Assembly (NCBI GenBank): GCA_937921305.1
Contig: CAKZSU010000003.1
Location: 38,831-102,830, forward strand
DNA: 64,000 bases
DNA from: an uncultured Patescibacteria group bacterium
Lineage (GTDB): Bacteria; Patescibacteriota; Microgenomatia; UBA10105; UBA927
Direction of reading: 5' to 3'
Position 1 is the first letter of the stretch. The number at the start of each line of letters is the position of its first letter. Under the pieces are notes generated by a model. The model saw nothing but the letters and a program-made list of their open reading frames with translations. It was not told where the DNA came from and did not search any database. Of the stretch, positions 3,310 to 60,561 are shown one piece after another. The position numbers were made by a program, and so were the translations under genes.

Positions 3310-3383
3310 CAATAAACAATGGAAGACGCTTTTTCTTGAGGAATAATGGCGTCTTTTTTAGTATAATTATCAAAAAATACTAT

Positions 3384-3459
3384 TGCCGGGTGGTGTAACG
3401 GTAACACGCCTGACTTTGGATCAGCGCGATTCTAGGTTCGAATCCTAGCCCGGCAGCCA
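3384..3459 (+). tRNA. tRNA-Gln, anticodon TTG, with an encoded 3' CCA
   Basis: Sequence TGCCGGGTGGTGTAACGGTAACACG. Anticodon loop CTTTGGA. T-loop GGTTCGAATCC. Acceptor TGCCGGG/CCCGGCA followed by G-CCA. Confidence 0.75.
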
Positions 3460-3490
3460 GTATGTAGAAGAAAGCCGCAAAGAGGTAGAG

Positions 3491-3537
3491 CTTGCCGCGC
3501 CCGCCTCCGCGGCAAGCGCGTCAAATCCTCCTTTTTT
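3491..3537 (+). terminator. GC-rich hairpin (CTTGCCGCG-CCCGCCTC-CGCGGCAAG) followed by a T6 run. It may terminate the tRNA operon or be an att-site remnant.
   Basis: Perfect 9-bp GC stem at 3491-3516 and a TTTTTT run at 3532-3537. The local GC content is far above the genome background. Confidence 0.35.
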
Positions 3538-3559
3538 GAAACTTGCGGACAGCCGCCGA

Positions 3560-29764: not shown

Positions 29765-32020
29765 TCACTTCTTCCCCAATCGTTGTTCAGCATTGAAGAT
29801 CGTTTCTCGGACATGGTAGATCGCGTCTGGATTGACGGAGACGCTTGTGATTCCCCATTCCACGAGTTTTTCAACCAAATCGGGATAATCCGATGGCGCT
29901 TGTCCACACATGGAAACCGTAATACTATGTTGAACGCATGTTTTTATCACTCGCTCAAACGCCCATAAGACCGCAGGATCGCGTTCAGAAAAATCATGTG
30001 CCACTTCGCTGTTGTCTCGATCCGTCCCAAGAATGAGCATCGTCAAATCATTTGATCCAATGGAAACGCCGTCAATCCCCACAGCGATGAAATCTTCTAA
30101 ACGAATCACATTTGTGGGAATCTCGCACATCAGCCACAATTTAAAATCATGACTCCGCTCCAGTCCTTCCTGCTCCATAATCCGTTGTACATCGCGCAAT
30201 TCTTCCGGCGTCCTCACAAATGGAATCATCATCCAAAGATTCGTATATCCAAATTCATTGCGGACCTTTTTTATCGCAGCAAGTTCCATGCGAAATACGC
30301 GCGGATCGGCAACATATCGAGCGGCTCCCCGAAATCCAAGCATAGGATTCGGCTCTTCCGGTTCAAAGGCATCTCCTCCTTTTAATCCTCGATATTCGTT
30401 TGTCTTAAAGTCTGTCGCTCGATACACGACCGGTTTTCCCTGAAACGCCTTGCAAAACACTTCTAGTTTTTCCGCGAGAGCAGAGACAAATGCATCTTCT
30501 TTTTGCTCTTCAATAAATTTCCTTGGATGAACTCCGATATCAGCGATCATAAACTCGGCTCGCAAGAGCCCAACGCCATCAACATGCATTTTGGAAACTG
30601 ATTCCGCTCTGCTTGGTTCCGCAAGATTGACATACACTTTTGTTGCTGTCTTTCGTTCTTCTCTCGGTATGGAAATTTTCGTTGTCTGCATATCAATTTT
30701 TCCTTCATAAATTTCTCCTCGGGTTCCATGTACCGTAATAACCATACCATCTTTTAATGTTGTCATCGCTCCTGTCGTTCCCACTACAGCGGGAATACCA
30801 AGCTCTCGCGAAACAATCGCCGCGTGAGAGGTCCTTCCGCCTCGCTCTGTCACAATCGCCACTGCTCTTCGCATCGCAGGAACAAAATCAGGATTTGTCT
30901 GTTCGGCAACCAATACATCCCCTTGTTCCACGCGATTGATTTCTTCCGCAGAACGAAGCACTTTCACAACTCCTGAAGCTACACCTGGACTTGCCGGATC
31001 ACCTTTTAATAAGACATGCAAAGACTTCTGAGATATTTCCTGATCGTTTGACGAAACCTGATGATCTATTGTCGTGACAGGTCGTGTTTGAACAATATAG
31101 AGTTTTCCTCCTTCCATCGCCCATTCAATATCCTGTGGAAAATAGTAATGCCGTTCCAGTCGGATGCCCAGATCCGCGAGTTGTTTTATGTGTTCATCGG
31201 ATAGCTTTTGTCGTTTTGCTTCTTCGGGATTGCACGAACGGATCAAGTTTCCTGTTCCTTGTTGCATCATCATCTTTTCTTGTTCTTTAACAATTTTTGT
31301 TAGAATCTCTCCTGTTTTTTTATCAACTTCATAATGATCGGGCGTTACCGCTCCTTGCACGATCATTTCTCCGAGCCCAATTATTGCTTCGATAATAATT
31401 TTTGTTTTGTCATTCGTTACAGGATCAACGGTAAACATAATCCCCGACGCTTCAGACTCGATCATTTTTTGCACCGGAACGGCAATTCCCACCTTAAAAT
31501 GATCAAATCGGTTGGTTGCTCGATAAAAGATAGCTCGGGCCGTAAAAAGAGAAGCCCACGCTTCTCGCACTTTGTCAACCACGTTCGCTTCGCCTTGAAC
31601 ATTTAAAAACGTTGATTGTTGTCCGGCAAACGACGCGCCAGGCAAATCTTCAGCCGTCGCTGATGAACGAACTGCAACCAACGCGTGACGAAACGGTCCG
31701 CTTAAAGTGAAATACGCGTTGATAATTTCTTTCGCAACATCTTTTGGAACGTTTGCATGAATAATCAAACTTTGAATCTTTCTCGCTATTTCTTCCAACG
31801 CGACCGTGTTGTTTACATCAAGAACAGATAACAGATCATGAATCTTGCTTCGAAGATGATCTTCTTCAAGAAATCGATAATACGCATGCGAAGTGACGAT
31901 AAATCCATTTGGTACAGGAAATCCCGCTTGAGCCATTTCTCCAAGATTTGCTCCCTTTCCGCCGACAAGATCGATATCTTCCTTATTTACATCTTTAAAC
32001 CATACCACATACTTCTCCAT
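29765..32020 (-). CDS. ppsA: Phosphoenolpyruvate synthase (pyruvate, water dikinase)
   Basis: 751 aa. N-terminal GGKGANLGEM and VPNGF motifs, RSSATAEDLPGASFAGQQ block, the phosphohistidine-domain motif RGGRTSHAAI, and a C-terminal PEP-utilizing TIM barrel. Confidence 0.9.
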   Translation of the reverse strand: MEKYVVWFKDVNKEDIDLVGGKGANLGEMAQAGFPVPNGFIVTSHAYYRFLEEDHLRSKIHDLLSVLDVNNTVALEEIARKIQSLIIHANVPKDVAKEIINAYFTLSGPFRHALVAVRSSATAEDLPGASFAGQQSTFLNVQGEANVVDKVREAWASLFTARAIFYRATNRFDHFKVGIAVPVQKMIESEASGIMFTVDPVTNDKTKIIIEAIIGLGEMIVQGAVTPDHYEVDKKTGEILTKIVKEQEKMMMQQGTGNLIRSCNPEEAKRQKLSDEHIKQLADLGIRLERHYYFPQDIEWAMEGGKLYIVQTRPVTTIDHQVSSNDQEISQKSLHVLLKGDPASPGVASGVVKVLRSAEEINRVEQGDVLVAEQTNPDFVPAMRRAVAIVTERGGRTSHAAIVSRELGIPAVVGTTGAMTTLKDGMVITVHGTRGEIYEGKIDMQTTKISIPREERKTATKVYVNLAEPSRAESVSKMHVDGVGLLRAEFMIADIGVHPRKFIEEQKEDAFVSALAEKLEVFCKAFQGKPVVYRATDFKTNEYRGLKGGDAFEPEEPNPMLGFRGAARYVADPRVFRMELAAIKKVRNEFGYTNLWMMIPFVRTPEELRDVQRIMEQEGLERSHDFKLWLMCEIPTNVIRLEDFIAVGIDGVSIGSNDLTMLILGTDRDNSEVAHDFSERDPAVLWAFERVIKTCVQHSITVSMCGQAPSDYPDLVEKLVEWGITSVSVNPDAIYHVRETIFNAEQRLGKK

Positions 32021-32085: not shown

Positions 32086-33648
32086 TTAGGAGCATCGCAT
32101 TTCTCGATAATAAGAAAGTAATTGGTTGGTTGAGGAATCATACCGTGATGATGAAGATTCGATGAGAATATCTTGCACAATGCTCTTCGCAATCACTTTA
32201 CCATACTCCACGCCAAATTGATCAAATGAGTTAATATCCCACAGCGCGCCTTGCGTGAACACCTTGTGTTCATATATGGCAATCAGTTGCCCCAACGTCC
32301 TTGGCGTCAATTGAGTCGCAAGAAATGTTGTTGATGGACGATTTCCCGGTATGTCTTTGTGTGGTTCATCAGATGTTTTCCCAAACGCTAACACATGCGA
32401 TTGCGCAAAACAATTCGCGACCAGTTTCTCATGATGATCTCCGATAGGATACGCGCTCTTCGCAAAAACGATAAAATCAACCGGAAAAAATTTTGTTCCT
32501 TGATGAAGCAATTGAAAAAAGGAGTGTTGCGCGTTTGTTCCTGGCTCCCCCCAGACAATCGGTCCTGTTTCATAGGAAACTATAGATCCATCTTTTGTCA
32601 CTCGTTTCCCGTTGCTTTCCATATCTAATTGCTGAACATACGCCGGAAATCGGTGAAGATATTGTTCATATGGAATGATCGCGTATGTTTGCGCATTCCA
32701 CATATTGTTATACCAAAATCCAAGAAGGCCCAAAAGCAAAGGCACATTCCTCTCCATTGGCGTTGTTTTAAAATGTTGATCAATATCATAATATCCAGCA
32801 AGAAAATCTTTAAAATGATTCCATCCAATCGCGATCATGAGCGATAATCCAATCGCTGAAGGCAATGAATATCTCCCTCCAACCCAATCCCAAAATTCAA
32901 ACATGCGATCGGGCGATATTCCAAACCGAGCAACCTCTTCCGAATTTGTAGAAAGAGCTACAAAATGATCGGCAATCGCTTCTTCTGGCATTGACTGAAG
33001 AAACCAAGATCTTGCGCTTTTTGCGTTTGTCATCGTTTCATTCGTGGTAAATGTTTTAGAAGCAATAATAAACAATATTTCCTGTGGATGAATTTCTCGA
33101 ATCGCTTCATGCAAATGCGCGCTATCTACATTGCTCACAAATCGAACATCGATATTACGATCAGCGTATGCTTTCAGCGCTTCATATGCCATAACAGGTC
33201 CCAGATCAGACCCGCCAATACCGATATTGATTACATATTTTATTTTTTTCTCGCTTCGAATACGATCAGAAAATACGTGCATACGCTCAAGAACAGAATG
33301 AACATCCTCTGCAACATTTTTCCCATCGACTGTGATTGGTGTCTCTCCTTGATGCCGAAGAGCGATATGAAGAACAGATCGATGCTCTGTTGTATTTATC
33401 TTTTCCCCAGCAAACATCGCATCGCGAAGGGTTTCGATTCCTCTTGCTTTTGCAAGTGCAAACAAAAGATCAAGTGTCTTCTTTGTTATACGATGCTTTG
33501 AAATATCGACAATAAAATCTCCCGCTTGATAGGTAAATGTTTTTGCTCGTTCTTGATCATGAAAAAAAAGATCTCGAATATGAATGTTCTGTAGTTCTTC
33601 TACATGAGATTGAAGTTGCTTATATTCTGGCAGATCAATTAATACCAT
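32086..33648 (-). CDS. pgi: Glucose-6-phosphate isomerase
   Basis: 520 aa. SIS-domain pattern and PGI signature regions ([11 protein letters not shown]). Confidence 0.85.
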
Positions 33649-33655
33649 AAAATGG

Positions 33656-35020
33656 TTATCCCTTTCTTTTTCCGCCTAATTCTTCGATCGCTGAGATAAC
33701 TTCTGAAAGTTTCTCTTCAAGAATTTCTTTTGTGTCTGCTTCCATGTTGAGGCGAAGCAACGGTTCTGTTTTTGACGCTCTCACATTAAACCAATAGGTT
33801 TGATACCATACACTCACGCCGTCAATTTCGTCAACTGAATCCGCAGTTTTTCCAAATATTTCTTTCATGCTTGCGATTATCGCGTTTGCGTCTGGAACGA
33901 AAAAATTTATTTCTCCGCTGTCAGGGTAAATACTTAATTCATCAACATATTCCGATAACTTCTTTCCTTCTTGAGACAATAGCGAAAGAACCATCAATGC
34001 CGTTAGCACGCCGCTTTCAGCAAAAAAGAAATCCCGATGAAAATAATGACCAGAATGTTCTCCAGCAAAAATCGCATTTTCCTCTCTCATGTATTGTTTA
34101 ATATAACTATGTCCAACGCGAACTCGCCTCGATCTTCCGCCGTATTCAGCGATAACTTTTGGCACAACACGTCCGCAAATGACATTATATAAAATCATTT
34201 CTCCCGGGTGATGTTTCAAGATATATTTTGAGAGAATGGCGGTGGTAATCGTTCCGCTGACAAAACGGCCTTTGTCGTCAATTAAAAACATTCGATCCGC
34301 GTCTCCGTCAAACGCCATTCCGACATCGGCGTTTGATTGAAGAACGGTCTTCCTCAATTCTTCTGTATTTTCTTTGATAAGCGGATTGGGAATATGATTT
34401 GGAAATCTCCCGTCTAATTCCATATACATTCCTGTTACTTTGAATGGCAGATCGTTGAAAATAATTGGAACAAGTTTTCCCGCCATGCCATTTCCCGCAT
34501 CAACGACGACAGAGAGTGGCTTCAGGTTATCGAGATGAACAAGAGACAGAATTTTTTCTTTCCATGCTGGATATGGATCAATAGAAATCAAAGCCCCTTT
34601 CTTTTCGGCGTTTGAAAGTGGAGCATTGCTCAACGCGTCGCGGATATCAAATAATCCTGAATCGGATGTTACCGAAATCGCGCCTCGTTTTGTCAATTTT
34701 ATTCCGTTATACTCGGGTGGATTATGAGACGCGGAAATCATAAGAACCAAATCGTAATCATATGTCCCTGCAATAAAATAAGATAGTTCTGTTCCGCAAA
34801 GTCCTGCGTCATAGACATCAACGCCAAGATTGAGAAATGCTTCAGAAAATCCCTTAAATAACTCGTCTCCCGATGTTCGCATGTCGCGACAAATAGCGAT
34901 TGACGATGGACGAAACACAAGAACAATCGCGTGAGCTATAGCCGATGCGATCTGTCCATTTATTTGAGAGGGATACACTCCGCGAATGTCATAATCCTTA
35001 AAAATAGTTAAATCGTACAT
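33656..35020 (-). CDS. Phosphoglucomutase/phosphomannomutase (alpha-D-phosphohexomutase family)
   Basis: 454 aa. Active-site serine motif [13 protein letters not shown] and Mg-binding motif DGDADR. Confidence 0.85.
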
Positions 35021-36228: not shown

Positions 36229-37376
36229 TTAACACTTCCGGAAGGAGACTTGTCTTTGTGTACATATTATACCTTTTCCATATCCAAGTTCTTTCATGAG
36301 GGCTGTAGGAGCGCTACAAAGAGACAAAGGAATCGAAAGGTTTCCATAACGTTGAACATCCTGAATAGCCTCCATGATGGCGTCATAGGAACTTCGATCT
36401 TTTTTCTCGTTTGCAAGATATATTGTTCCAAACGACAACACAATGGTCGCTTCAGGATAGCCAATCTTATGACACGCGTCAAATACGGCGTTTGCCACAA
36501 CAAGTGCTGTTGGTTGAGCCATGCCAATATCTTCAGCAGCGAAAATAATCATCCGTCGAGCGATAAACAATGGGTCTTCTCCTCCTTCAACCATGCGAGC
36601 AAGGTAGTATAACGCGGCGTTAACATCCGACGCACGCATGCTTTTTATAAACGCTGAAATCGTGTTGTAATGCTCATCGCCTGCTTTATCGTATGAAAGG
36701 TATGGTGTTTGAAGCGCTTGTAAAATTATTTTTTGAGTAATTTCATTGCTCTTCACGAGAGAAATAGCGATTTCTAGTATCGTAAGCAATTGTCTCGCAT
36801 CGCCATTCGCAAACTCAACAAGTTTTCTTTGAGCATCTTTTGTTATCGTTTTATTGAATAACTTTAATGCTCGATCAATAAGAATATTCATATGATAATG
36901 TTCAAGTCGTTTTAATAGAAAAATTTTTACTCGAGAAAGCAACGCGTTCTGTATCTCAAATGAAGGATTTTCCGTTGTTGCACCAATAAGCGTTATCGTT
37001 CCTTGTTCAACATAGGGGAGCAACGCGTCTTGTTGTCCTTTATGAAATCTATGAATTTCATCAAGAAAAAGAATTGTTCGTTGAGATCGTTGTTTCGCCT
37101 CTCGTATGGTATCCCGAATGTCATCAAGAAGCCCACTCGTGATAGCAGATTTCCACGCAATATGCGCGTCAACTTCATGAGCAATGAGATGAGCAAGTGT
37201 TGTTTTCCCCACGCCGGGCGGTCCCCAAAAATGAGCGACGGAAGATGTCCCGTGCGGATCATTTGAAGTAAAATCCCACTTGAACCAACAAGATGTTCTT
37301 GTCCAACGAACTCATCAAGTGTCTTTGGTCGCAATCGATCAGCTAATGGTTGATACGGATGATTCATAGTGCTCAC
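36229..37376 (-). pseudogene. rarA: Recombination-associated AAA+ ATPase RarA/MgsA, interrupted by a -1 frameshift in a homopolymer run just before the Walker A motif
   Basis: N-terminal fragment (MSTMNHPYQPLADRLRPKTLDEFVGQEHL...LPSLIF) and the remainder (W)GPPGVGKTTLAHLIA... lie in different frames. They meet at the A5/C4 run at 37223-37231 (T5G4 on the coding strand). Confidence 0.7.
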
Positions 37377-37806: not shown

Positions 37807-37876
37807 TACGTAATAAGCAAGCACAACACTTCTTTTCTTTTATAAAATTTGCTACAATATTTCCTATAAACATGTC

Positions 37877-37950
37877 GCCCCGTTCGTCTAGCGGCCTAGG
37901 ACTCGTGGTTTTCAGCCACGCAATCGCCGGTTCGAATCCGGCACGGGGTA
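37877..37950 (+). tRNA. tRNA-Glu, anticodon TTC
   Basis: Sequence GCCCCGTTCGTCTAGCGGCCTAGGAC. Anticodon stem CGTGG/CCACG carries the loop TTTTCAG. T-loop GGTTCGAATCC. Closely resembles canonical bacterial tRNA-Glu. Confidence 0.75.
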
Positions 37951-37953
37951 CAA

Positions 37954-38655
37954 ATGGAAGACATTAACACAAAAATTATCGCCACGATTGGTCCCGCAAC
38001 ACTTAACTTCAACATCTTTCAAGAACTTGTAATCGCTGGCATTGATTATATTCGTATCAATACAGCCTATGGAGATACCACCCAATACGATCTTATTTTA
38101 GAAAACAGACGAAAGCTTCCTAATCATCGACATATCCCGGTAGTATTTGATATTAAACATGAAGATATTATGGATTATTTTGTTGAAAAACAACTCGAGG
38201 TTGTCGCATTATCATTTACGGAACGAGCGGCACAAATTGAACGGATACGGCAAAAAGCGCCTCATGCATTTGTGATCGCGAAAATTGAATCAAAAGAAGG
38301 CGTTAAGCATTTTGACGAAATTCTTGAATCAGCAGATGGCATTATGGTCGCAAGAGGCGATCTCGGAAAAGCGGAGTCATTGGAAAAAGTGCCACCGCTG
38401 CAAAAGACATTCACTAGAAAAACGTTGGAAAAAGGGAAATTTTTAGTGACAGCCACAGAAATGCTTCTCTCCATGACAAAAAATCCTCAACCAACACACG
38501 CGGAAGTCTCTGATGTGGCGAATGCGGTGTTTGACGGCACATCAGCGGTGATGCTTTCAGAAGAAACAGCAATTGGAAAATATCCTGTTGAAACAGTCTA
38601 TTTTATGAGACGAATCATCGAAGAAGCGGAACGGTGGAAAAAGATAGATTATTGA
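37954..38655 (+). CDS. Pyruvate-kinase-like protein that keeps only the catalytic TIM-barrel (A) domain. The B/lid and C-terminal domains are absent.
   Basis: 233 aa. Carries pyruvate-kinase catalytic motifs: TKIIATIGP, IAKIESKEGVKHFDEILESADGIMVARGDLG, TATEMLLSM, and PTHAEVSDVANAVFDGTSAVMLSEETA. Confidence 0.6.
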   Translation: MEDINTKIIATIGPATLNFNIFQELVIAGIDYIRINTAYGDTTQYDLILENRRKLPNHRHIPVVFDIKHEDIMDYFVEKQLEVVALSFTERAAQIERIRQKAPHAFVIAKIESKEGVKHFDEILESADGIMVARGDLGKAESLEKVPPLQKTFTRKTLEKGKFLVTATEMLLSMTKNPQPTHAEVSDVANAVFDGTSAVMLSEETAIGKYPVETVYFMRRIIEEAERWKKIDY

Positions 38656-38726: not shown

Positions 38727-39815
38727 TTATTTACAAAACGCAGCGACATCTCCGTGATATACTAAACGCATTGTTGTTAATTGACACAATGGTGATGAAA
38801 ATTGTTCGCGAAAAGCGATTGTAGCTAATCGCGATTCTAAAAGACTCTTGAAAAAACCTTTATTTGGAGATTCTTCAACAATAGAGAATGCATCTTCGGA
38901 GATATTCGCTCGTTTTGCTAACTCCTTATACGCATCTTCTTTATTCATCACTGCGTCGATGAGATTTTTTTCTTTGCTCATCTTCGTGTCATACACAAGC
39001 GCGCCAATCGAATCTCGCAACGTTCCTTTGTTTATGTTTCTTCGAGACGACACATACTCGAGGAATCCATCATATTCATTGTTTACCATTGTTTGCATTG
39101 TTGCCAGTTCTTCTTTTGTAAGCTTTCTAAATGGATTTCCTAAATCTTTATATTTTCCTGCGGTTATAAACGTCGTTTCTATGCCATTTTGAGTTACTAC
39201 GCCTCCATCTAATATTCCGCCATCTTGCGCAATAACTTTGTCATAGAATTGATACGGACCAGAAATTACTCCAATGCTTCCTATACTCGTTCCTGCGTCT
39301 GCAAACACGCTATCTCCCGAAACAGCGACCCAATATCCACCAGACGCCGCAATACCTGAAATAAAAGAGATTACGGGTTTTCCAGATATTCGCTTATATT
39401 CCGCCACCCCATCCGCAATCGCTTTCGCTCCATAGATTGTTCCTCCAGGAGAGTTTATCGAAAGAACAACGCCATGAATGTCTTTGTTTTGAGCAAGCTC
39501 TCGAAGTTTCTTTTTTACATCATAGCCATAGGCAAGCGAATCGCTCATCAATCCAAATGGATCAGAAATATCCGATGTATCGCCAACAATCACGCCGTGA
39601 ATAGGAATTGACGCAAATTTATATGGAGCGTCTTCCTTTCCATATAAAACTTTTCTGCTCCCTTGTGCACTTTCCAAAGATGACGCAGCTTGCCCCAAAA
39701 TGATTCCAAAAATAACAAAGAATACGATTATTGATCCTCCAAGTGTTATGCTGACAATGATCGTTGCAAGAAATACTTTAAGAGAAAATGTAACAAAACG
39801 TTTGAAGATACCCAT
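38727..39815 (-). CDS. sppA: Signal peptide peptidase SppA (S49 family, 36K type)
   Basis: N-terminal TM segment and an S49 ClpP-like fold with GVVLSINSPGG and ASGGYW motifs. Confidence 0.8.
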   Translation of the reverse strand: MGIFKRFVTFSLKVFLATIIVSITLGGSIIVFFVIFGIILGQAASSLESAQGSRKVLYGKEDAPYKFASIPIHGVIVGDTSDISDPFGLMSDSLAYGYDVKKKLRELAQNKDIHGVVLSINSPGGTIYGAKAIADGVAEYKRISGKPVISFISGIAASGGYWVAVSGDSVFADAGTSIGSIGVISGPYQFYDKVIAQDGGILDGGVVTQNGIETTFITAGKYKDLGNPFRKLTKEELATMQTMVNNEYDGFLEYVSSRRNINKGTLRDSIGALVYDTKMSKEKNLIDAVMNKEDAYKELAKRANISEDAFSIVEESPNKGFFKSLLESRLATIAFREQFSSPLCQLTTMRLVYHGDVAAFCK

Positions 39816-45200: not shown

Positions 45201-45944
45201 ATGCGCGTTACTTCTCTTAAAACATCTCCTGTAATGCATCAAGGCGATATCTTCGCATTTCTCGATGAATGGATTCACGCGTTGGAAGAGCGAACAATTG
45301 TCGTTATCACCTCAAAAGTTGTGAGTATTTTAGAAGGCAATGTCAGAGAAAAAACGATCTCAAAAGAGGATCTCATCAAACAAGAAGCGGGATATTACAT
45401 CGAAGATGAATGGCTGTGGAAATACTACCGATTATTTATCACAAGAAAAAACGATATCATTATTGCAAACGCCGGCATCGACGAATCAAACGCAAACGAT
45501 CGGTATGTGTTGTGGCCAAAAAATCCGTTTGAAACAGCGGAACGCGTATGGAGACATCTAAAAACGAAACACACTCTATCTTCGTTGGGCGTTATTATTT
45601 CCGATAGTAGAATCACGCCGTTGCGGTGGGGAACGATTGGAATAGGCATTGCGTGGTGCGGATTCCAGCCTCTCAATGATTATCGAGGAGCGCCAGATAT
45701 TTTCGGCAGATCTCTTCGCGTCACAAAAGCGGGGATCTTGGATGGATTAGCCGCTTCCGCCGTCCTTGTTATGGGAGAAGGAAAAGAACAAACGCCAATT
45801 GCGATGATTACCGATGTTCCATTTGTTACATTCGTCGATCATCCGCCGACCGAAGAAGAACAACAATCGATGCGAATTGATGTAAAAGATGATATTTACG
45901 CGCCTCTTATGACAGCAGCGCCATGGCAAAAAGGTGGCAAATAA
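45201..45944 (+). CDS. CofE-like protein (F420-0:gamma-glutamyl ligase family)
   Basis: Block-wise similarity to CofE: NAGIDESNAN (NAGIDASNVE in CofE), LGVIISDSRITPLRWGTIGIGIAW (VGVIITDTNGRCFRRGVVGFAIG), DIFGRSLRVT (DLYGRELEVT), and VLVMGEGKEQTPIAMI (NLLMGEGGDGIPAVVV). Confidence 0.6.
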   Translation: MRVTSLKTSPVMHQGDIFAFLDEWIHALEERTIVVITSKVVSILEGNVREKTISKEDLIKQEAGYYIEDEWLWKYYRLFITRKNDIIIANAGIDESNANDRYVLWPKNPFETAERVWRHLKTKHTLSSLGVIISDSRITPLRWGTIGIGIAWCGFQPLNDYRGAPDIFGRSLRVTKAGILDGLAASAVLVMGEGKEQTPIAMITDVPFVTFVDHPPTEEEQQSMRIDVKDDIYAPLMTAAPWQKGGK

Positions 45945-45956: not shown

Positions 45957-46718
45957 ATGAATATTCTTTCTTTGATTGTAGGCGTTATTCTTAACCTCTT
46001 TGGTGGAGTTTCCTCTCCTGAAAGAATGCAGCAACATCAGAAACCAACCCCATCTCAGAAACAACAAAAAACTATAACGTATAACAACACATCATATGGC
46101 TATTCGATGCTCGGTCCTATTCCAAGAACATCAATCACGCTTTATAGCAATTTGCCGGTAAAAAAAACAGGAAAAGAAATACAGGAAATATATCAATGTA
46201 AATATCTTATAAATGGAGGATTTTATACAAAAGAGAATACCCACTTAGGACTGCTTGTAACGGAAGAAGGAACAAAAAGTCAACGAATAAAACACTCGCT
46301 ATTTCATGGATTTTTTTTCAAAACAAACGATGGATCAATACATATTGATCGCATGATTCCAGAAAAACCATTAGGATTTGCGCTTCAATCCGGTCCATTG
46401 CTGATTGTTAAAGGAGAACCGGTAATATTAAAGATTATTCAAGATGAACAAGCAAGACGGATCGCTGTTGGTCTTGATGAGTTTTCCAATGTGTATTTTT
46501 TTGCATTTTATGACACAAACAATCCGTTTCACGGACCATTTCTTGCGGATATGCCAGAAATTCTTCAAAAAACTGGAGAAGCGGAGGGGATCGCAATTCA
46601 GAACGCGATAAATCTTGACGGTGGAAGTCATTCGGCATTTTATGGATCAGATATAACGCTTACCGAACTTTCGCCGATTGGAAGTTTCTTTTGTATCAAA
46701 AGTAGAATCGATCGGTAA
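45957..46718 (+). CDS. Phosphodiester glycosidase family protein (NAGPA-like domain) with an N-terminal TM/signal segment
   Basis: YLINGGFY motif and AINLDGGSHSAF motif, both typical of the phosphodiester glycosidase domain. Confidence 0.65.
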   Translation: MNILSLIVGVILNLFGGVSSPERMQQHQKPTPSQKQQKTITYNNTSYGYSMLGPIPRTSITLYSNLPVKKTGKEIQEIYQCKYLINGGFYTKENTHLGLLVTEEGTKSQRIKHSLFHGFFFKTNDGSIHIDRMIPEKPLGFALQSGPLLIVKGEPVILKIIQDEQARRIAVGLDEFSNVYFFAFYDTNNPFHGPFLADMPEILQKTGEAEGIAIQNAINLDGGSHSAFYGSDITLTELSPIGSFFCIKSRIDR

Positions 46719-46982: not shown

Positions 46983-48224
46983 TTATCTTCTCACAAACAA
47001 AATCGCGTTTGGGATGTTTCTCCCAGGTCCAACCTTGTATCCTCCGTACCATAATGCCGTTGATCCGCCGGAATCAAGATTCAACGCGTTATCCATGCCA
47101 AGCGTTTTCATAACATGCGCGTTCTCCGCGACTGTCGCGTTATGCGTAACGCCGATATACACCAACGCGCCTTTATTTGCAACAAAACTTCTCGGTCCCC
47201 TGCTCCCTTTTTTGGGATCGCCGTCGTCTCCGTACGCAATGTCCCCGCCAAACACTAATAATCCTTGATTTGCAATCATGCTATCAATTCCTGTATCCCT
47301 GCCCCATTCCAATGATTTTTGAACAAATCGAACAGAGTTTCCAAGAAATATCACCGCCGGAACAACGCTATATACATTATTTTCAGAGTTAAAATAGACT
47401 TTATCTTTGTTCATAAGCAGCGTGTCAAATGAATTCGTTTTGCCTGCGCAAGATGGATATGATGAAGGACAAAAATATGATCCATTAATTCCAGCGTACG
47501 CACCATTTCTCGATACATACTCCGCGAGAGACAACACAGGACACTCGTTTCGACAATCGTTTGACGACGCGGTATCAACAATCACTCTTGTAGATGATAG
47601 ATCGCCCGCAACAATGTCAACCATATACTGTTGACCCAACGCAGACACTACTTGTCTACTATACCCATACCCGGGAGGTGTATTGCTTTCCTTCGCAGAT
47701 GTAGGATGAGGCTGTGATGATTTCGCAATGTAATCGTTTATTTTATAAATTTCTTGAGAAAGTGCGCGCAATTTTTCTTGTGCTGTTTTATAGTCTCTTT
47801 TGCCAAGAAGGACTAAAATTGTCGCGAATTGTTCGTCGAGTTTCTGCGTCTTTTGCGACAATTCTCGAATCTTTAGTATTTCTTCATAAGACTGAATTGT
47901 TTGCTGATACGTAGAGCGAATCTGTTCCAATTCTTCTTTTAATTCTTGATTAATTTTTCTCTGATCTTCTTGTTTTATTCGTTCAAGTTCCGCGCTGACG
48001 CTTGCAAGCTCATTTTGAAGTATCAATGCTTGAAGCTCGTATCGATCTCGTTCTTTTCTTAACGCGACGATTTGTTGCATTGTTTGTTCTTTCTCATCGG
48101 AGTAAAACAATACGATAAATAACCCTATAAAACATGCAGTGATCAGTATAACAATAAAAACTAATGCTTTGAGGCGATGAGAAGCAATCATTTGCTTTAC
48201 CATGCTTTTCTCTTCCTGTATCAT
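46983..48224 (-). CDS. Membrane-anchored coiled-coil protein with a C-terminal phosphodiester glycosidase domain
   Basis: N-terminal TM segment, a coiled coil of about 150 aa, then AGINGSYF...ALNLDSGGSTALWY motifs. Confidence 0.6.
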   Translation of the reverse strand: MIQEEKSMVKQMIASHRLKALVFIVILITACFIGLFIVLFYSDEKEQTMQQIVALRKERDRYELQALILQNELASVSAELERIKQEDQRKINQELKEELEQIRSTYQQTIQSYEEILKIRELSQKTQKLDEQFATILVLLGKRDYKTAQEKLRALSQEIYKINDYIAKSSQPHPTSAKESNTPPGYGYSRQVVSALGQQYMVDIVAGDLSSTRVIVDTASSNDCRNECPVLSLAEYVSRNGAYAGINGSYFCPSSYPSCAGKTNSFDTLLMNKDKVYFNSENNVYSVVPAVIFLGNSVRFVQKSLEWGRDTGIDSMIANQGLLVFGGDIAYGDDGDPKKGSRGPRSFVANKGALVYIGVTHNATVAENAHVMKTLGMDNALNLDSGGSTALWYGGYKVGPGRNIPNAILFVRR

Positions 48225-54060: not shown

Positions 54061-55713
54061 TTATCGCATTTCACAAGCTCTAATGAAGCCAATGAACAAT
54101 GGATGAGGGGACAATGGCCGAGATCGATATTCTGGATGATATTGCGTGCCGATAAAGAATGGATGCTTTTCTTTCGGCAACTCAATAATTTCCACCAAAT
54201 GCTCAATCTTTGATCGTCCTGCAATGATGAGCCCTGCTTGCTCTACTTGATTCGCGTACTCGTCGTTGAATTCGTATCTATGCCGATGGCGCTCTCCGAC
54301 AATTCGTTCATTTGGATTGTCGTAATACGAGTATTTTTGATATAAGAGATCTGCTTGCGTGTCTTCTTTCACCACGCACTCCCATTTCCCCAGCCTCATC
54401 GTTCCGCCATATGCGCGACGACGAATAAACTCTTCTTGTCCTTCAATCATGTGAATTATCGGATGTGGGGTGTGCGGATCGCATTCTGTCGTATGCGCTT
54501 CTTCTAGACCAAGAACATGCCGAGCAAACTCTACCACCGCAAGCTGCATGCCGTAGCACAATCCAAGGTAGGGAACACCTTTTTCCCGCGCGTATCGTAT
54601 CGCGGAAATTTTTCCTTCAACCCCTCTCGATCCCCATCCAATCGGGACAATAATGCCATGCGTTCCGTCCAATAACGATACATCTCCTGATTCTAACAAT
54701 TCTGCTTGAATCCACTGAACGCGAACGTCAATATTTTCTTTCCACGCCGCGTGATCAATCGCGTCCATAAGCGCCGCGTAACTATCGCGGAGCTGATAGT
54801 CGCCTGTGGCAAAATATTTTCCGACAACTGCGATTTCCACTGTTGATCGTTTTGGCGCGTAAATAGTTTTGACCATATCTTCCCATGGAGACAAGCACAA
54901 TTCTCGAAGTGGAAGAGAAAATAACTGCAGAATTTTCTCATCAAATTTTTGTTCGGCAAACGATATGGGTACTTCATATGGACTTTTCATATCGACGCTA
55001 TCAATCACATGATCCGGCTCGACATTGCAAAACAACGCGAATCGCTCTCGCCGGCGATCGTCGATCGGTTGTTCCGAACGAGTTACAATAAAATCTGGCT
55101 GAATTCCCATGGAATTTAATGTTTTTACCGATAGTTGCGTTGGCTTGGTTTTTGGTTCTCCGAGATGCGTCGGTGTTGGAAGATAGCTAACATGCACATG
55201 AACAACCTTGTTGTCTTTATGCAGTTTCATAATTCTCGATGCTTCATAAAACAACACATTTTGATACTCTCCCGCTGTTCCCCCAAGTTCGACGATCACA
55301 ATATCCGCGTTTTCTTTCTCTCCGACGGTCATGATCCTCCGAATAATTTCGTCTGTCACATGAGGAATCGCCTCTACATCTTCTCCGCCATATTCAAAGT
55401 TTCGTTCTCGTTCAATGACTTTTTTATAAATTTGTCCCATCGTCACGAAGTTGTCTTGCGTCATATTTTTTCCGAGATATTTTTCATATGTCCCAAGATC
55501 CATGTCTGCTTCTGTCCCATCATCCATCAAAAACGGATCGCCATGCTCGATAGGATTGATAAGTCCGGCGTCGATATTTAAGTAATTTTCACATTTCACT
55601 ATTGTCACTCGGTATCCGCGAGATTGAAGAAGAAGCGCAATAGAAGCGGTCGTGACGCCTTTTCCTAATCCAGAGATGACTCCACCGGAAACGAAGATAA
55701 AATTTTGAAGCAT
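54061..55713 (-). CDS. pyrG: CTP synthase
   Basis: 550 aa. N-terminal synthetase domain (FVSGGVISGLGKG) and a C-terminal glutamine amidotransferase domain (GLCYGMQ). Confidence 0.95.
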   Translation of the reverse strand: MLQNFIFVSGGVISGLGKGVTTASIALLLQSRGYRVTIVKCENYLNIDAGLINPIEHGDPFLMDDGTEADMDLGTYEKYLGKNMTQDNFVTMGQIYKKVIERERNFEYGGEDVEAIPHVTDEIIRRIMTVGEKENADIVIVELGGTAGEYQNVLFYEASRIMKLHKDNKVVHVHVSYLPTPTHLGEPKTKPTQLSVKTLNSMGIQPDFIVTRSEQPIDDRRRERFALFCNVEPDHVIDSVDMKSPYEVPISFAEQKFDEKILQLFSLPLRELCLSPWEDMVKTIYAPKRSTVEIAVVGKYFATGDYQLRDSYAALMDAIDHAAWKENIDVRVQWIQAELLESGDVSLLDGTHGIIVPIGWGSRGVEGKISAIRYAREKGVPYLGLCYGMQLAVVEFARHVLGLEEAHTTECDPHTPHPIIHMIEGQEEFIRRRAYGGTMRLGKWECVVKEDTQADLLYQKYSYYDNPNERIVGERHRHRYEFNDEYANQVEQAGLIIAGRSKIEHLVEIIELPKEKHPFFIGTQYHPEYRSRPLSPHPLFIGFIRACEMR

Positions 55714-55719
55714 AGTTTA

Positions 55720-56355
55720 CTATAGCACGGATTTTGTCTTTGATTCAAGATATGCGCGACCATGGCCAACGGTTGTATTTACAGGAATCCCTTGCGCGCA
55801 GAACGGACATGACGCTTCATCAAACGCTTCCGCTTTAAGAATGCCAAGCGACGAAAACGGCGCGTCAAAGAGCTGATCATTCACCAATTCAGGATTTCTA
55901 TTCACCATCACTGCTACCGCAGCAACGCGTCCGCCGACAGCGCGAACACGTTCAACAACCTTTAACACAGATCCTCCCGTTGTCGTTAAGTCTTCTACGA
56001 CAAGAACGCGTTTATTTTGAACAAATCGATCATATCCTCGCGTAAATATGTGATGTTTATTCGCGTCTTTTTCCGTGTATACTCCAAACACTTCTTTCTT
56101 TTTTAAAATAGATAAATGATACGCAGTCCATTGAGAAAGAATAATCCCGCCTAACGCCGGACCGACCACCACATCAATATCCATTGATTGATAACGCTCC
56201 GCAAACATTTTCCCAACCATAGAGGCGAGTTCCGTATGCGGATATAACGCGTCTTTATTTACATACACGCTCCCGTGTTTTCCTGATGTATAAACAAAAT
56301 GATCATCGGTAAGCACCGCGCCAACAGAACGAAGTATATTAATAATGTCCATCAT
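55720..56355 (-). CDS. pyrE: Orotate phosphoribosyltransferase
   Basis: 211 aa with the PRPP-binding motif VLVVEDLTTTGGS. Confidence 0.8.
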   Translation of the reverse strand: MMDIINILRSVGAVLTDDHFVYTSGKHGSVYVNKDALYPHTELASMVGKMFAERYQSMDIDVVVGPALGGIILSQWTAYHLSILKKKEVFGVYTEKDANKHHIFTRGYDRFVQNKRVLVVEDLTTTGGSVLKVVERVRAVGGRVAAVAVMVNRNPELVNDQLFDAPFSSLGILKAEAFDEASCPFCAQGIPVNTTVGHGRAYLESKTKSVL

Positions 56356-56367
56356 ATATGTTCCTCC

Positions 56368-57147
56368 TTAGATTGTCGATCTATATATATTAATTTCTTC
56401 TCGAAGTGACATGGTCGCACTTCTTGGATCGCTAGCTTCTAGAATAGATCGAGATGCAGAGATAATAAGACGACCCTTTTTATCGCGTGTTATTCCTGAC
56501 GCGACCACGCGTTGTACTTCTCCTCCCTGCACACCGATACCGGGGACCAATAATGTCATATCACCAACAATTTGTCGAACATGATTCAATTCCTCTGGAA
56601 ATGTCGCGCCAACAACTAATAAACAATTTCCGTACCGCTTGTGCCATCCTGCGACATGTTCGGCAACATGCTGATATAATGGTTTGCCATCAATCATAAG
56701 ATCTTGAAACTCTTCACTTCCGAGGTTTGATGTTCGACAAAGGATGATGCATCCTTTGTCTGACCGTTCTAAAAACGGTCGCAGAGAATCTTCGCCGAGG
56801 TATGGATGAAGCGTAATCGCATCCGCTTTAATATAGTCAAATGCGAATGTTGCATATTGCTGGTTCGTATGCGACACATCGCCTCGTTTTGCGTCAATAA
56901 TAATCGGAAGATGAGGATATGTTTGAGCGATATAATCGCAGGTTTTTTTCATCTCATCGATATGTCCGGCTTCATAAAATGCGGAATTTATTTTATACGC
57001 GCAAACAAGATCATTCGTCGCGTCTATAATCCGTTTATTAAACGCAAACTGATCGTCCTGAACAATGTTTGAATCTGTATCAAGCCCAACACATACCAGT
57101 GAATCGTTGCGATCCATTGCGAATGAAAGTTTATCAAGGAATCTCAT
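56368..57147 (-). CDS. pyrF: Orotidine 5'-phosphate decarboxylase
   Basis: 259 aa with the IIIDAKRGD active-site region. Confidence 0.75.
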   Translation of the reverse strand: MRFLDKLSFAMDRNDSLVCVGLDTDSNIVQDDQFAFNKRIIDATNDLVCAYKINSAFYEAGHIDEMKKTCDYIAQTYPHLPIIIDAKRGDVSHTNQQYATFAFDYIKADAITLHPYLGEDSLRPFLERSDKGCIILCRTSNLGSEEFQDLMIDGKPLYQHVAEHVAGWHKRYGNCLLVVGATFPEELNHVRQIVGDMTLLVPGIGVQGGEVQRVVASGITRDKKGRLIISASRSILEASDPRSATMSLREEINIYRSTI

Positions 57148-58448
57148 ACAATCGCTTGATGAACGATTTGATCGTATTCGTCTTCAGACACTGTGCCTTT
57201 TTCGATTATGACATCACGAAATGATCTTTCTGTGTCAACGCACTCTTTAACAATTTTACTGATTGTTTCATATCCAAACTTTGGTATAAACAGCACAGCG
57301 ACTGCCGTAGAATGATTCAAATGTCTTTTGCACATATTCTCATTCGCTTCAAGCGAATCAATACACAAGAAACGAAACACGGTTGTTCCTTCTATGGCGA
57401 GGCGAAACGAATGAATACAGGAATCTGCAAGTATAGGAAACATGTTCGCCAATTCAAGCTGAGCTGATGTTGCTGCAAGTTGAACAGTCAACGCTTTTCC
57501 GGCAACAAGAAAATACAGTTGATTAATTGCTTCAGGAATTATTGGATTCACTTTTCCAGGCATAATCGTTGATCCTTTTTGCAATTCTGGAATTCGAAGC
57601 TCTGCTAATCCCCCGCGCGGACCACTTGCCATAAGACGGATATCATTTGCAATCTTTGAAAGATCCGCAAGATAGGCAACAAGCGCGTTGATAGACGCAA
57701 GAAAATCTCCTTGACTACTTGTCTCTGCCATCAAATTTTCCGCCGGAATAACGGGAATTTGAAGATGTTCCCGAAGAGCCTCGTATACCGCTTGTCTGTA
57801 TAGCTCAGACGCGTTGATGCCGTTGCCAATCGCTGTCCCCCCAAGATTAAGACGATAAAATATCTGGATCATATCTTTAAGTCGATCTCGATGTTTTTCG
57901 CAAATGGAAGCATACGCGGAAAACTCTGCGCTCAACGTGGTTGGCACCGCGTCTTGCAGATGCGTTCGTCCAAGTTTGCCAACAGTTTTCCATGTGTTTG
58001 CTTTTCTCAAAAACGCTTCCACGAGTTGATCCATAGACGAAACAAGAGATCTCAGAAGACGAATCATAACAATTTTTAACGCCGACGGATTAACATCGTT
58101 TGTTGATTGAGACGCGTTTACATGATCAAGTGGATGAATCGTGATGTTCGCGACTTCAGAAGCTATGGAAGCAATAACTTCATTCACATTCATATTGATC
58201 GATGTTCCAGCTCCACCTTGAAGCGCGCAAGTGACAAATTGATCGTCATACTTTCCATCGAGAATCATCTCGCACGCGGAAACAATTCCCGAAGATATGT
58301 CTTTAGAAATCCGACCATCGCGTTCATTCGCTATCGCCGCGGCTTTTTTTATCGCGACAATTGCGTATATCAATACTTTATCCACTCTATGGTAACTGAA
58401 TGGAAAATTTGCAATGGCTTGTGTTGTTTGTTCTCCGTAATATTTCAT
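57144..58448 (-). CDS. Class II fumarate hydratase / aspartate ammonia-lyase family lyase
   Basis: 434 aa. Fumarate-lyase signature GSTIMPGKVNP, QGGAGTSINMNVNEV block, and an N-terminal YGEQTTQAIANF region. Confidence 0.65.
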   Translation of the reverse strand: MKYYGEQTTQAIANFPFSYHRVDKVLIYAIVAIKKAAAIANERDGRISKDISSGIVSACEMILDGKYDDQFVTCALQGGAGTSINMNVNEVIASIASEVANITIHPLDHVNASQSTNDVNPSALKIVMIRLLRSLVSSMDQLVEAFLRKANTWKTVGKLGRTHLQDAVPTTLSAEFSAYASICEKHRDRLKDMIQIFYRLNLGGTAIGNGINASELYRQAVYEALREHLQIPVIPAENLMAETSSQGDFLASINALVAYLADLSKIANDIRLMASGPRGGLAELRIPELQKGSTIMPGKVNPIIPEAINQLYFLVAGKALTVQLAATSAQLELANMFPILADSCIHSFRLAIEGTTVFRFLCIDSLEANENMCKRHLNHSTAVAVLFIPKFGYETISKIVKECVDTERSFRDVIIEKGTVSEDEYDQIVHQAIV

Positions 58449-59602
58449 ATCATCCGCTGAATTTCATCGGCAAGTGTAGGACGCCACATTGCTCCGACAG
58501 CCGATTGAACTGCGTCAACGCCTCGTTTCATGTACGCGATATAATCATCGGGAGACACAACGCCCCCCACGCCAACAACAACAAAATCCCTCCATCCATG
58601 TTTTTGTTTTACCGAAACGATTCGCTCCACGGTTTCCAATCCGGCCCATTTAATCGCAACGCCGCAGATTCCACTCACTCGCCGAACCGGAGATCCGGGA
58701 AGCGCTTGATTTCCGTATTCATCAAGAACAACTGCGGGAATTGTATTGATCGCAACCACACCATCAGCAAATGTATGAATTCTATCAAGTAACGCCTCCA
58801 AATCATCTTGACGATCGTAAGGAAAATAGCCAATTTTGACTAATAACGGCGTATTCTTTTTCGCTCCATGCAACGCCTCCAGAACATCGGACGACATCTG
58901 AAGATCATGGCAAATTAACCCTTCCGATCCAAAATTGGGACACGATAAATTTACTTCATAAATTTGCGCGCCTGTTTCTTGCGAAAGACGGTACGTATTT
59001 ACGAAATCTTTAATATACTCATCTCGAGACATTGACTCTTTTTTCAATCCCATAAAACTGAGAATACATATGCGTCCCAATGACATATGATCAATTGCCA
59101 AACGAACATCCTGTTGCCACACTTCCGGCGGTTTAGATGGAACACCAAAGGAATTCGTTACACCTTCTTTTTCAACATCAATATCGTTTGTTGGCGGTAA
59201 TCCAATCACTGTCTCTTGCGGGTGAATATCATTAGTCGAGCTTTTTACGGGAATAACATTTGGAAATGGATGACAAGGATACACTTCGCTTCGGACTGTT
59301 TTGTAGGTATTCACGCAAAATCCTGCTCGCCACGCGGCGATCATAAACCTGCTATTCAAAAGTGGTCCTGCGGGAATGCCAAACGGCAAATCCACGGCGA
59401 ACCCGAGAAACGACAAGGAAGACTTTTTCTTTATTTCAACAACGAACGATGGGTCCGCAAATAAGCCAAACGGACCGTGATCATAGTTTTCTTCATAGGA
59501 TTTTGTCGCATCATAGAACGCGTTCATATAAGAAACCTCCCATCCTGATAGATCGTCGCTCCGCGAAAGACAACACGACGGACCTTTCCATAGGCTTCCC
59601 AT
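58445..59602 (-). CDS. pyrD: Dihydroorotate dehydrogenase. The true start is likely internal, because the listed ORF overlaps pyrC by about 79 nt.
   Basis: TIM-barrel DHODH pattern with YEVNLSCPN and GGV motifs. Confidence 0.7.
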   Translation of the reverse strand: MGSLWKGPSCCLSRSDDLSGWEVSYMNAFYDATKSYEENYDHGPFGLFADPSFVVEIKKKSSLSFLGFAVDLPFGIPAGPLLNSRFMIAAWRAGFCVNTYKTVRSEVYPCHPFPNVIPVKSSTNDIHPQETVIGLPPTNDIDVEKEGVTNSFGVPSKPPEVWQQDVRLAIDHMSLGRICILSFMGLKKESMSRDEYIKDFVNTYRLSQETGAQIYEVNLSCPNFGSEGLICHDLQMSSDVLEALHGAKKNTPLLVKIGYFPYDRQDDLEALLDRIHTFADGVVAINTIPAVVLDEYGNQALPGSPVRRVSGICGVAIKWAGLETVERIVSVKQKHGWRDFVVVGVGGVVSPDDYIAYMKRGVDAVQSAVGAMWRPTLADEIQRMI

Positions 59603-60561
59603 CCATCAAACGGAGACCATTGACATTTTGTGAAATATCCGTCTTCTCCAATGCGATATGGCTCGTCTGGATCGCATGTTACATATGTATCTTTTTGATC
59701 CGGCACAGAAAAAATACGCTTTGGACGATCATACAACAACGCCAACACAATCTTCATCGGAAGTCGTTTATCATGAACCGCCCGAAGCAATAATCCAAGC
59801 GTCGTTTCAAGTCCGGGCATACCATACGCAGGCTCAGCAACTGTTTTTTCTTCTTTTGTATGGGGCGCGTGATCGCTTTCAACAATATCGATCGTGCCGT
59901 CATGAATCCCTTCCCACAGCGCATCTTGATCGTCCTGATTTCCAATTGGCGGTTTCACTCGAAAAAAACCGCTAAGACGAGACTCGTCATCGGTCGTTAA
60001 AAATAGATGATGTGGGCAGACGCCACAGGTAATCTGATCGTAGATCGCTTTTTCTTTTTGAATAATTTGCACATCTTCCGCTGTTGCCACATGGCACACA
60101 TGAATCCTCCGTTGATGTTTTCTCGCAAGAAAAAGCATTTTTGGAAGCATGTTCCCCTCGGCGTGAACTAGAATCGGTTTTAATGAACGCCACGCGGCAA
60201 AAATCCGATCTAAAAGTTCTTCTTCGGTAACCACGTACTTCCCGGTTGTTTCATTGCAATAAATTTTCAATCCAAACACTGCAGAGTCATTCCATGCCTG
60301 CGGAAATGTATCAAGATTATTTCCGTCTGTTCCGTAGTGAAATCCGATGTCGCATCGCGCTTTTTCTTTACTCAACGAAACTTTTTGTTCCAACGCTTCA
60401 ATTGAAAATGTGGGAATAGGATTGTTTGGCATGTCAAGAATATAGGTAAATCCTCCGGCAATTGCCGCGCTGCTTCCTGTCAAAAAATCCTCTTTGTGTG
60501 TCGCACCCGGCTCGCGCAAATGCACATGAATATCAATCAAGCCGGGTAATTGAACAATCAT
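59524..60561 (-). CDS. pyrC: Dihydroorotase (cyclic amidohydrolase)
   Basis: N-terminal metal-binding motif DIHVHLREPG and DHAPH motif, in a pyrimidine-operon context. Confidence 0.7.
   Translation of the reverse strand: MIVQLPGLIDIHVHLREPGATHKEDFLTGSSAAIAGGFTYILDMPNNPIPTFSIEALEQKVSLSKEKARCDIGFHYGTDGNNLDTFPQAWNDSAVFGLKIYCNETTGKYVVTEEELLDRIFAAWRSLKPILVHAEGNMLPKMLFLARKHQRRIHVCHVATAEDVQIIQKEKAIYDQITCGVCPHHLFLTTDDESRLSGFFRVKPPIGNQDDQDALWEGIHDGTIDIVESDHAPHTKEEKTVAEPAYGMPGLETTLGLLLRAVHDKRLPMKIVLALLYDRPKRIFSVPDQKDTYVTCDPDEPYRIGEDGYFTKCQWSPFDGWEAYGKVRRVVFRGATIYQDGRFLI

Follow-up and report, generated by a model that had tools for sequence, protein, structure and literature searches.

Pyruvate kinase (PK) is classically described as an enzyme that catalyzes its reaction in the cleft between an A-domain barrel and a mobile B-domain lid, and that is regulated through its C domain. 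In a 64-kb stretch of a contig from an uncultured Patescibacteria group bacterium (64,000 nucleotides, hereafter named the window), we found a gene encoding a PK homologue of 233 amino acids that has neither the lid nor the C domain. We consider it probable, judging from its sequence and from its relatives, that this protein, hereafter named the query, is a constitutive, non-allosteric minimal PK consisting of the A domain only. It belongs to a large conserved family of such proteins. The gene is located as follows:

37954..38655 (stop codon included), + strand: lid-less, C-domain-less pyruvate kinase homologue of 233 aa (open reading frame with an ATG start)

The first-pass annotation had read this open reading frame (ORF) as a PK homologue lacking the B (lid) domain and the entire C-terminal domain. 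The ORF was recovered at this position, and every motif quoted for it is present in the translation. A Pfam search matched the query to the PK barrel model PF00224 (198.7 bits for a cut-off of 30, E=1.7e-58); the match falls into two stretches that bypass the lid, and PK_C (PF02887) was not matched. Sequence matches among solved structures (PDB) were PKs only, with E values down to 4e-48. In the alignment with the PK of G. stearothermophilus (2E28), residues 5-78 of the query correspond to 4-79 and residues 61-225 to 168-336, leaving the lid (~80-167) and all residues past ~340 without a counterpart. Relative to E. coli PykF, the query has no counterpart of the lid (residues ~73-176) and stops short of the C domain, at the equivalent of ~345. 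We then compared PykF, its lid (residues 70-175) and its C domain (residues 340-470), taken from the annotated record, with the six frames of the window using tblastn. The ORF alone was matched (E=2e-39 and 1.7e-5), all other matches having E>0.6, and no coding for a lid or a C domain was detected elsewhere in the window. The earlier claims are therefore borne out: homology to PK by the Pfam, NCBIfam ranking, PDB sequence and fold matches, loss of the lid by the alignments to solved PKs and PykF and by its absence elsewhere in the window, and loss of the whole C domain by the lack of a PF02887 match and by an end at about PykF 345.

The structure prediction proposed at that stage as a check on the two domain losses confirms them. 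AlphaFold2, run on the 44-sequence family alignment A1, produced a model of the query with a predicted local distance difference test score (pLDDT) of 94.4 and a predicted template modelling score (pTM) of 0.91. Eight strands and eight helices form a complete (beta/alpha)8 barrel, and only the A domain is present. At the point where the lid is usually inserted, strand beta3 (63-67) is joined to helix alpha3 (70-78) by a link of two residues in the AlphaFold2 secondary structure, and the protein ends after helix alpha8. The absent B domain thus amounts to ~100 residues cleanly excised between beta3 and alpha3, at this junction:

38149..38163, + strand: lid-excision junction, with D66 (PykF D66) and K68 at the end of beta3 and the two-residue link to alpha3 (PykF alignment, AlphaFold2)

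The 50 best Foldseek matches in the PDB were pyruvate kinases only, with a query-normalised template modelling (TM) score of 0.89-0.92 and 34-41% identity. They include 7QDN, a human liver PK with the B domain deleted; no natural lid-less PK was seen among the solved structures searched with Foldseek.

To follow this architecture beyond the window, we examined the relatives of the query. The 120 best relatives among 5.8 billion proteins have 219-274 aa, carry PF00224 as their sole PK domain and show 59-100% identity. They are usually labelled "pyruvate kinase" in the database, and their named sources belong mostly to the Patescibacteria group (Microgenomates, Woesebacteria, Levybacteria, Saccharimonadales). 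The query shares 58-84% identity with the 43 other members of alignment A1, and all clade-specific residues are common to them. We define here a lid-less A-only PK clade of Patescibacteria by a length of ~220-275 aa, PF00224 only, a direct beta3-alpha3 junction D-[IL]-K-x-x, the motifs ATEML and MLSEETA, and a Tyr where canonical PKs have a His after R-x-N; the query has each of these traits. This clade is large, widespread in Patescibacteria and under strong purifying selection. The minimal PK is therefore not peculiar to the query genome, since it represents a large conserved family across bacteria of the candidate phyla radiation (CPR). When 1.84 billion cluster representatives were searched exhaustively with a profile, the close family was reduced to few clusters at 50% identity, and it is consequently a tight clade. 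The same search yielded further lid-less A-only proteins of 221-259 aa, as well as lid-less proteins of 349-387 aa that keep the C domain (A+C, PF02887 confirmed). Among GTDB species genomes, lid-less genes were found in many Patescibacteria lineages; the loci of this genome scan were ascertained through the patterns VMLSEETA and ATEMLLSM, which makes them unfit for motif-frequency estimates. Outside CPR, lid-less A+C forms were found in Dehalococcoidia (L031, 2956-4131; L033, 2995-4137) and in a GC-rich metagenome-assembled genome (MAG) of Solirubrobacterales (L052, ~2880-4010).

The active site was compared column by column between 131 lid-less sequences and 111 lid-bearing PKs. Catalytic and ligand residues are common to both sets. 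The clade-invariant residues R34, N36, D66, K110, E112, D136, T168, S202 and E204 of the query correspond to R32, N34, D66, K220, E222, D246, T278, S312 and E314 of PykF. At the position of the cation-site Ser (PykF S36), the query has Ala and the clade is variable. Apart from D66, given above, these residues are encoded at the following positions:

38053..38085, + strand: R34 and N36 (PykF R32/N34; phosphate and monovalent-cation site), followed by Y39 and Q44 (clade invariance, PykF alignment)
38281..38289, + strand: K110-I-E112 (PykF K220/E222), catalytic Lys and Mg2+ ligand, invariant (clade and PykF alignments)
38359..38361, + strand: D136 (PykF D246), Mg2+ ligand in MVARGDLG, invariant (clade and PykF alignments)
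38455..38469, + strand: T168 (PykF T278, as in canonical PKs), followed by E169 (canonical Gln) and L172 (canonical Glu/Asp) (alignments)
38557..38565, + strand: S202-E203-E204 (PykF S312-G313-E314), with Ser and Glu as in canonical PKs and Gly changed to a clade-invariant E203 (alignments)

At six positions, namely Y39, Q44, N51, E169, L172 and E203, the residue is at least 90% conserved among the lid-less sequences but occurs in fewer than 25% of the lid-bearing PKs. The canonical counterpart of Y39 is a His (rabbit H77) and that of Q44 a Glu (PykF E42), while E169 replaces the Gln of ATQML, L172 a Glu or Asp, and E203 the Gly of MLSGETA. The E169/E203 pair is present in 128 of 132 parsed lid-less sequences (one of the 132, P0134 of 633 aa, being a motif-parsing artefact) and in none of 120 lid-bearing PKs, in a comparison whose lid-bearing sample is skewed towards sequences similar to the query profile and whose lid-less members are not phylogenetically independent of one another. 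The Gln-to-Glu and Gly-to-Glu changes each occur singly in lid-bearing PKs, and neither is therefore incompatible with normal PK chemistry. Nucleotide complexes of the S. pneumoniae PK show that E64 in the A-alpha2 helix, which aligns with Q44, touches the base, that the Thr/Ser aligning with T168/S202 hold the waters of nucleotide-Mg2+ together with a lid Asp, and that the ribose is bound by a lid Lys (bioRxiv 10.1101/2024.06.25.600556). By homology, the clade-specific changes appear to lie mostly at the rim facing the acceptor or the lid, and the half of the site that handles phosphoenolpyruvate (PEP) and Mg2+ would be untouched.

Analysis of the gene environment gave further clues. Clustering of the ORFs flanking 32 lid-less A-only loci revealed a second A-only subgroup at six species-level loci of Paceibacterota/Saccharibacteria (L032, L039, L057, L066, L073 and L082; PK at ~2960-3810 in most of them). 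The minimal PK adjoins enolase on the same strand in all six, with a gap ranging from an overlap to ~55 nt. It is flanked by a D-2-hydroxyacid dehydrogenase at L032, L057 and L082, and the further flanks comprise a cofactor-independent phosphoglycerate mutase (iPGM) at L066 and a glycerate kinase-type protein (DUF4147 and MOFRL) at L073. This gene order spells out the conversion of 3-phosphoglycerate (3-PG) or glycerate to 2-phosphoglycerate (2-PG), PEP, pyruvate and a reduced product, in which the PK step falls to the minimal barrel. The enolase-linked proteins have no lid barrel and no C domain, and keep a DLPGPR hinge with a loop of ~20 residues. They carry MLSEET like the query, but ATQM where the query has ATEM. 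No universal partner gene was found by clustering across the 32 loci, and there is thus no sign of a lid supplied in trans. A lid in trans or a split gene had been considered and was rejected, as tblastn matched nothing in the window beyond the ORF and the clustering of flanks gave no universal partner.

In a rough neighbour-joining tree built on A-domain columns without support values, the query falls in a lid-less clade of 53 terminals, comprising 43 A-only proteins, two fusions, eight A+C proteins and no lid-bearing PK. Other lid-less A+C proteins, including the Dehalococcoidia and Solirubrobacterales forms, have full-length PKs as their nearest tree neighbours. This suggests several independent lid losses, with which the differing junction sequences agree. 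Within the CPR clade, the tree suggests that the lid was lost before the C domain.

Some members of the family deserve a separate mention. In P0121 (448 aa) and L015 (2977-4347), the A-only barrel is fused C-terminally to a LOG/"Lysine_decarbox" (PF03641, SLOG) nucleotide-binding domain; the two are ~75-80% identical over the barrel and come from a Parcubacteria lineage (L015 is a Parcubacteria MAG). A link of this fusion to nucleotide metabolism or nucleotide binding is possible. Lid-less A-only PK genes are also present on contigs labelled Woesearchaeota or Nanoarchaeota (L022, L025, L026, L027 and L030). Their neighbours on these DPANN-labelled contigs (UvrC, UvrD, a LeuRS with the PF13603 editing domain, and AlaRS) did not confirm an archaeal origin, and the PF13603 editing domain is associated with bacterial-type LeuRS. 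These copies could result from mis-binning, mislabelling or transfer between CPR and DPANN. Two sequences titled "uncultured Gammaproteobacteria bacterium" (L010, CAZDOJ010000001.1, 1.32 Mb; L011, OZ246394.1, a chromosome of 1.61 Mb) encode a lid-less PK 64% identical to the query. Their label may be wrong, and the surroundings of that protein (P0035; L001) are not obviously gammaproteobacterial.

The conserved catalytic residues, together with the enolase-operon context of related minimal forms, favour a functional PK over a recruited fold. In such an enzyme, the phosphoryl group of PEP would be transferred to a nucleoside diphosphate (NDP) on an open, lid-less site, yielding pyruvate and a nucleoside triphosphate and thereby completing lower glycolysis. 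The nucleotide contacts would come from R34 and K110, from the metals and from the remodelled rim (Y39, Q44, E169 and E203). The rim changes (Tyr39, Gln44, Glu169, Leu172 and Glu203) may offset the lid residues that were lost (rabbit R119, K206 and D177); the two carboxylates gained there may, for instance, bind the hydrated nucleotide-Mg2+, which a lid Asp normally helps to position. The activity would be constitutive because there is no effector domain, and assembly would probably occur, at most, via A-A contacts. Lid closure is not universal, as the M. tuberculosis PK binds its substrate without lid movement (PMC8835810). Taken with the recurrent natural loss of the lid, this makes a lid-less PK plausible.

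Several observations weigh against this assignment. The lid residues that contact the nucleotide (rabbit K206, which is S. pneumoniae K184, and lid Asp153) are absent from the query, and because they touch the ribose and the phosphates, NDP affinity and rate could be poor. The operon argument reaches the query by homology only, since the enolase-linked subgroup is 36-39% identical to it and carries a hinge loop that the query does not have, and the query's own clade is without a conserved glycolytic neighbour. A PEP synthase encoded in the same genome could cover the interconversion of PEP and pyruvate. Moreover, the top-ranked NCBIfam models are pyruvate kinase models, yet the query falls under the trusted cut-off of each (for TIGR01064, 250.4 bits for a cut-off of 306.4), which is expected of what is only half a protein.

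The main rival to a minimal PK is a neo-functionalised barrel that would bind PEP or pyruvate and Mg2+ and serve another acceptor or reaction. Such a protein might, for instance, phosphorylate a different small molecule or a protein or domain, in the way that the lid-less PEP-utilizers_C barrel of PpsA/PPDK/Enzyme I serves a phospho-His domain; it might also hydrolyse PEP or decarboxylate oxaloacetate, the latter being a side activity of PK. We regard such a change of function as rather unlikely. It would fit the loss of the nucleotide-holding lid residues and the six invariant clade-specific changes on the acceptor-facing rim, which affect, among others, a highly conserved His (rabbit H77), the Gln of ATQML and the Gly of MLSGETA. 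The fusion of the barrel to a LOG/SLOG nucleotide-binding domain in one lineage (P0121, L015), the PEP synthase already present in the genome and the score below the PK equivalog cut-off point in the same direction. However, ordinary lid-bearing PKs can carry the Gln-to-Glu or the Gly-to-Glu change by itself, the 32 loci share no conserved partner gene, and the conserved Gln44 and the Tyr at the nucleotide-base position would argue for a retained nucleotide site. The related minimal forms, in addition, stand exactly at the PK position of enolase operons. This last point also argues against a non-catalytic or regulatory remnant, that is, a protein binding PEP or pyruvate without turnover, for which it can be invoked that a human PK with its lid deleted has been engineered for structural work (7QDN). 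The catalytic and metal residues stay invariant among close relatives as little as ~58% identical, and in distant lid-less representatives of still lower identity, a pattern typical of an active enzyme. A remnant of this kind is improbable.

The first-pass annotation had itself put forward two readings in which the ORF would not be a minimal PK at all, and neither stands. The ORF could be a fragment of a normal PK gene arising from a frameshift, an assembly error or pseudogenisation, and the nearby mgsA/rarA gene is indeed frameshifted, hence errors or decay do occur in the window. This reading is nevertheless effectively refuted: six-frame tblastn found no lid or C-domain coding in adjacent frames or in any other frame of the window, the lid is missing from within one uninterrupted reading frame, and the gene is hemmed in between a tRNA that ends 2 nt before it and a convergent S49 gene 72 nt past its end. 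The same architecture is, moreover, present in at least 120 close relatives and in more distant representatives. The query could otherwise be another TIM barrel of the PEP/pyruvate superfamily (HpcH/HpaI aldolase, citrate lyase beta or PEP mutase), a reading to which a weak match to HpcH_HpaI (PF03328; E=2.7e-4) and very weak matches to GarL (E ~0.04) lend themselves. It is refuted by the HpcH_HpaI score itself (20.7 bits, under the gathering cut-off of 25, against 198.7 bits for PK), by 38-45% identity to PKs over the barrel and by the presence of all PK-specific motifs.

The minimal PK proposed here was compared with known systems. Canonical PK (EC 2.7.1.40; PF00224 and PF02887; TIGR01064; PykF, 2E28) has a homologous A barrel with 40-45% identity over the barrel, but it is ~470 aa long, against 233 aa for the query, and, unlike the query, it has the lid and the effector/tetramer C domain. 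At the rim, its His, Glu, Gln, Glu/Asp and Gly are changed in the query to Tyr, Gln, Glu, Leu and Glu, respectively. In terms of sequence, the query is thus within the PK homologous family (PF00224) but departs from canonical PK on three counts, having neither lid nor C domain and scoring below the equivalog cut-off. The engineered human liver PK without B domain (7QDN; related ligand series 5SC8-5SDT) is close in fold, with a TMq of ~0.9 and 39% identity to the query. However, 7QDN is an artificial crystallisation construct in which the C domain was kept, whereas the query is natural, conserved and also devoid of the C domain. In the lid-less A+C PKs (P0130, P0164, P0184, P0210, L031/L033 and L052), the lid is excised at beta3/alpha3 as in the query, and at least one of the Gln-to-Glu and Gly-to-Glu rim changes is found; unlike the query, they keep PF02887 and have 349-391 aa. 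The short PK form NF005234/PRK06739 (model length 352) is without the C domain like the query, which scores 143.9 bits against it for a cut-off of 564. Judging from the model length and the position of the query match, this form keeps the lid, whereas the query has none. Finally, the PEP-utilizers_C barrel (PF02896; PEP synthase/PPDK/Enzyme I) is a lid-less PEP-binding barrel of the same PEP/pyruvate TIM-barrel superfamily, but its phosphate acceptor is a tethered phospho-His domain instead of a free nucleotide. It is only distantly related, one copy lying 6 kb away in PpsA, and has no significant sequence match to the query.

In the literature, CPR genome papers list PK without comment (e.g. 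PMC7143001). A large CPR survey found PK in about one third of the genomes and pointed out that divergent enzymes could escape its thresholds for hidden Markov models (HMMs) (PMC7304191). As the query itself misses the NCBIfam equivalog cut-off, counts of minimal forms may be too low, or such forms may be accepted without scrutiny. We found no description of a natural lid-less PK in the full-text literature, the coverage of which is incomplete, so that a prior description is possible; the literature searched likewise yielded no activity data for the engineered lid-deleted human PK. Taken jointly, the results allow a wider reading that we see as evenly poised: PK catalysis would need no lid, and an ultra-small bacterial radiation would run the last glycolytic step on a bare, unregulated, half-size TIM barrel, with repeated lid loss accompanied by acidic remodelling of the rim (Glu169/Glu203). 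In a bolder version, the acceptor would have changed or a partner would be needed. If either version is true, HMM-threshold surveys that find PK patchy or absent in many CPR genomes would partly reflect missed minimal forms. A conserved natural family without lid and C domain would show how little of a central metabolic enzyme is needed for catalysis and which rim substitutions make up for the lid; it would also provide a small PK scaffold free of regulation. It bears as well on whether CPR/Patescibacteria gain ATP from lower glycolysis.

The genes and elements around the PK-like ORF in the window are:

37850..37858, + strand: extended -10-like element TGCTACAAT, putative shared promoter ~20 nt upstream of tRNA-Glu (alignment A3)
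37877..37951, + strand: tRNA-Glu(UUC), its end separated by 2 nt from the ATG of the ORF (ARAGORN)
38727..39815, - strand: S49 peptidase gene, convergent, 72 nt past the PK-like ORF (ORF list and Pfam)
29765..32020, - strand: PEP synthase PpsA, with PPDK_N, mobile His domain and PEP-utilizers_C, serving the reverse or an alternative interconversion of PEP and pyruvate (Pfam)
32086..33648, - strand: PGI (window gene annotation)
33656..35020, - strand: PGM/PMM (window gene annotation)

The position first described for the ORF, just downstream of tRNA-Glu, is correct. Its proximity to a glycolytic gene cluster is only loosely true: PpsA, PGI and PGM/PMM are indeed present, but they lie 3-8 kb upstream on the opposite strand, with other genes between. 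The PGI/PGM/MgsA/S49/AcrB synteny around the PK-like gene is confined to the close relatives L007 and L008, and the tie of this gene to the neighbouring glycolytic genes is therefore weak. The gene surroundings of P0035, P0045 and P0009 are unrelated to those in the window, and this comparison gave no conserved operon for the query clade. A histidine-phosphatase-family protein is encoded 10 kb downstream of the PK-like ORF. No PK was found in the 10 kb past the right end of the window, where CPSase and F1 ATP synthase genes are located.

The tRNA-Glu(UUC) gene, which is without an encoded CCA, and the PK-like ORF are probably co-transcribed. The same 2-nt junction between them is found in the syntenic locus L007 (5924-6003), and a spacer of ~165 nt separates the two genes in L008 (5757-6001). 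An extended -10-like sequence, TGnTA(C/G)AAT, is conserved ~20 nt before the tRNA in the window, L007 and L008 (alignment A3); a scan for the -35/-10 consensus upstream of tRNA-Glu and the PK-like gene called no promoter. The sole Shine-Dalgarno-like GGGG before the ATG sits within the acceptor stem of tRNA-Glu. This arrangement suggests a tRNA-mRNA co-transcript from which 3' processing of the tRNA would release an mRNA with almost no leader.

Other features of the window were noted. The mgsA/rarA gene (AAA+ replication-associated recombination protein; 36229-37376, - strand) is split into two overlapping frames of 127 aa and 327 aa, with the break at Walker A. It is intact in the syntenic loci L007 and L008 (388-390 aa), and the frameshift of the window copy either marks it as a pseudogene or stems from a sequencing error. 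De novo pyrimidine synthesis is encoded by a full cluster, which extends over 54061-63922 of the window and, beyond its right end, over L090. It comprises the CPSase small and large subunits, ATCase, dihydroorotase, DHODH, OMP decarboxylase, a phosphoribosyltransferase and CTP synthase. The same contig carries F1 ATP synthase alpha/gamma/beta/epsilon, and together with the pyrimidine genes this is a comparatively rich metabolism for a CPR bacterium. A protein of the F420-0:gamma-glutamyl ligase family (PF01996) is encoded at 45201-45944 (+ strand) in this CPR-like genome, and two proteins with an NAGPA phosphodiester-glycosidase domain, encoded at 45957-46718 (+ strand) and 46983-48224 (- strand), adjoin the PF01996 gene.

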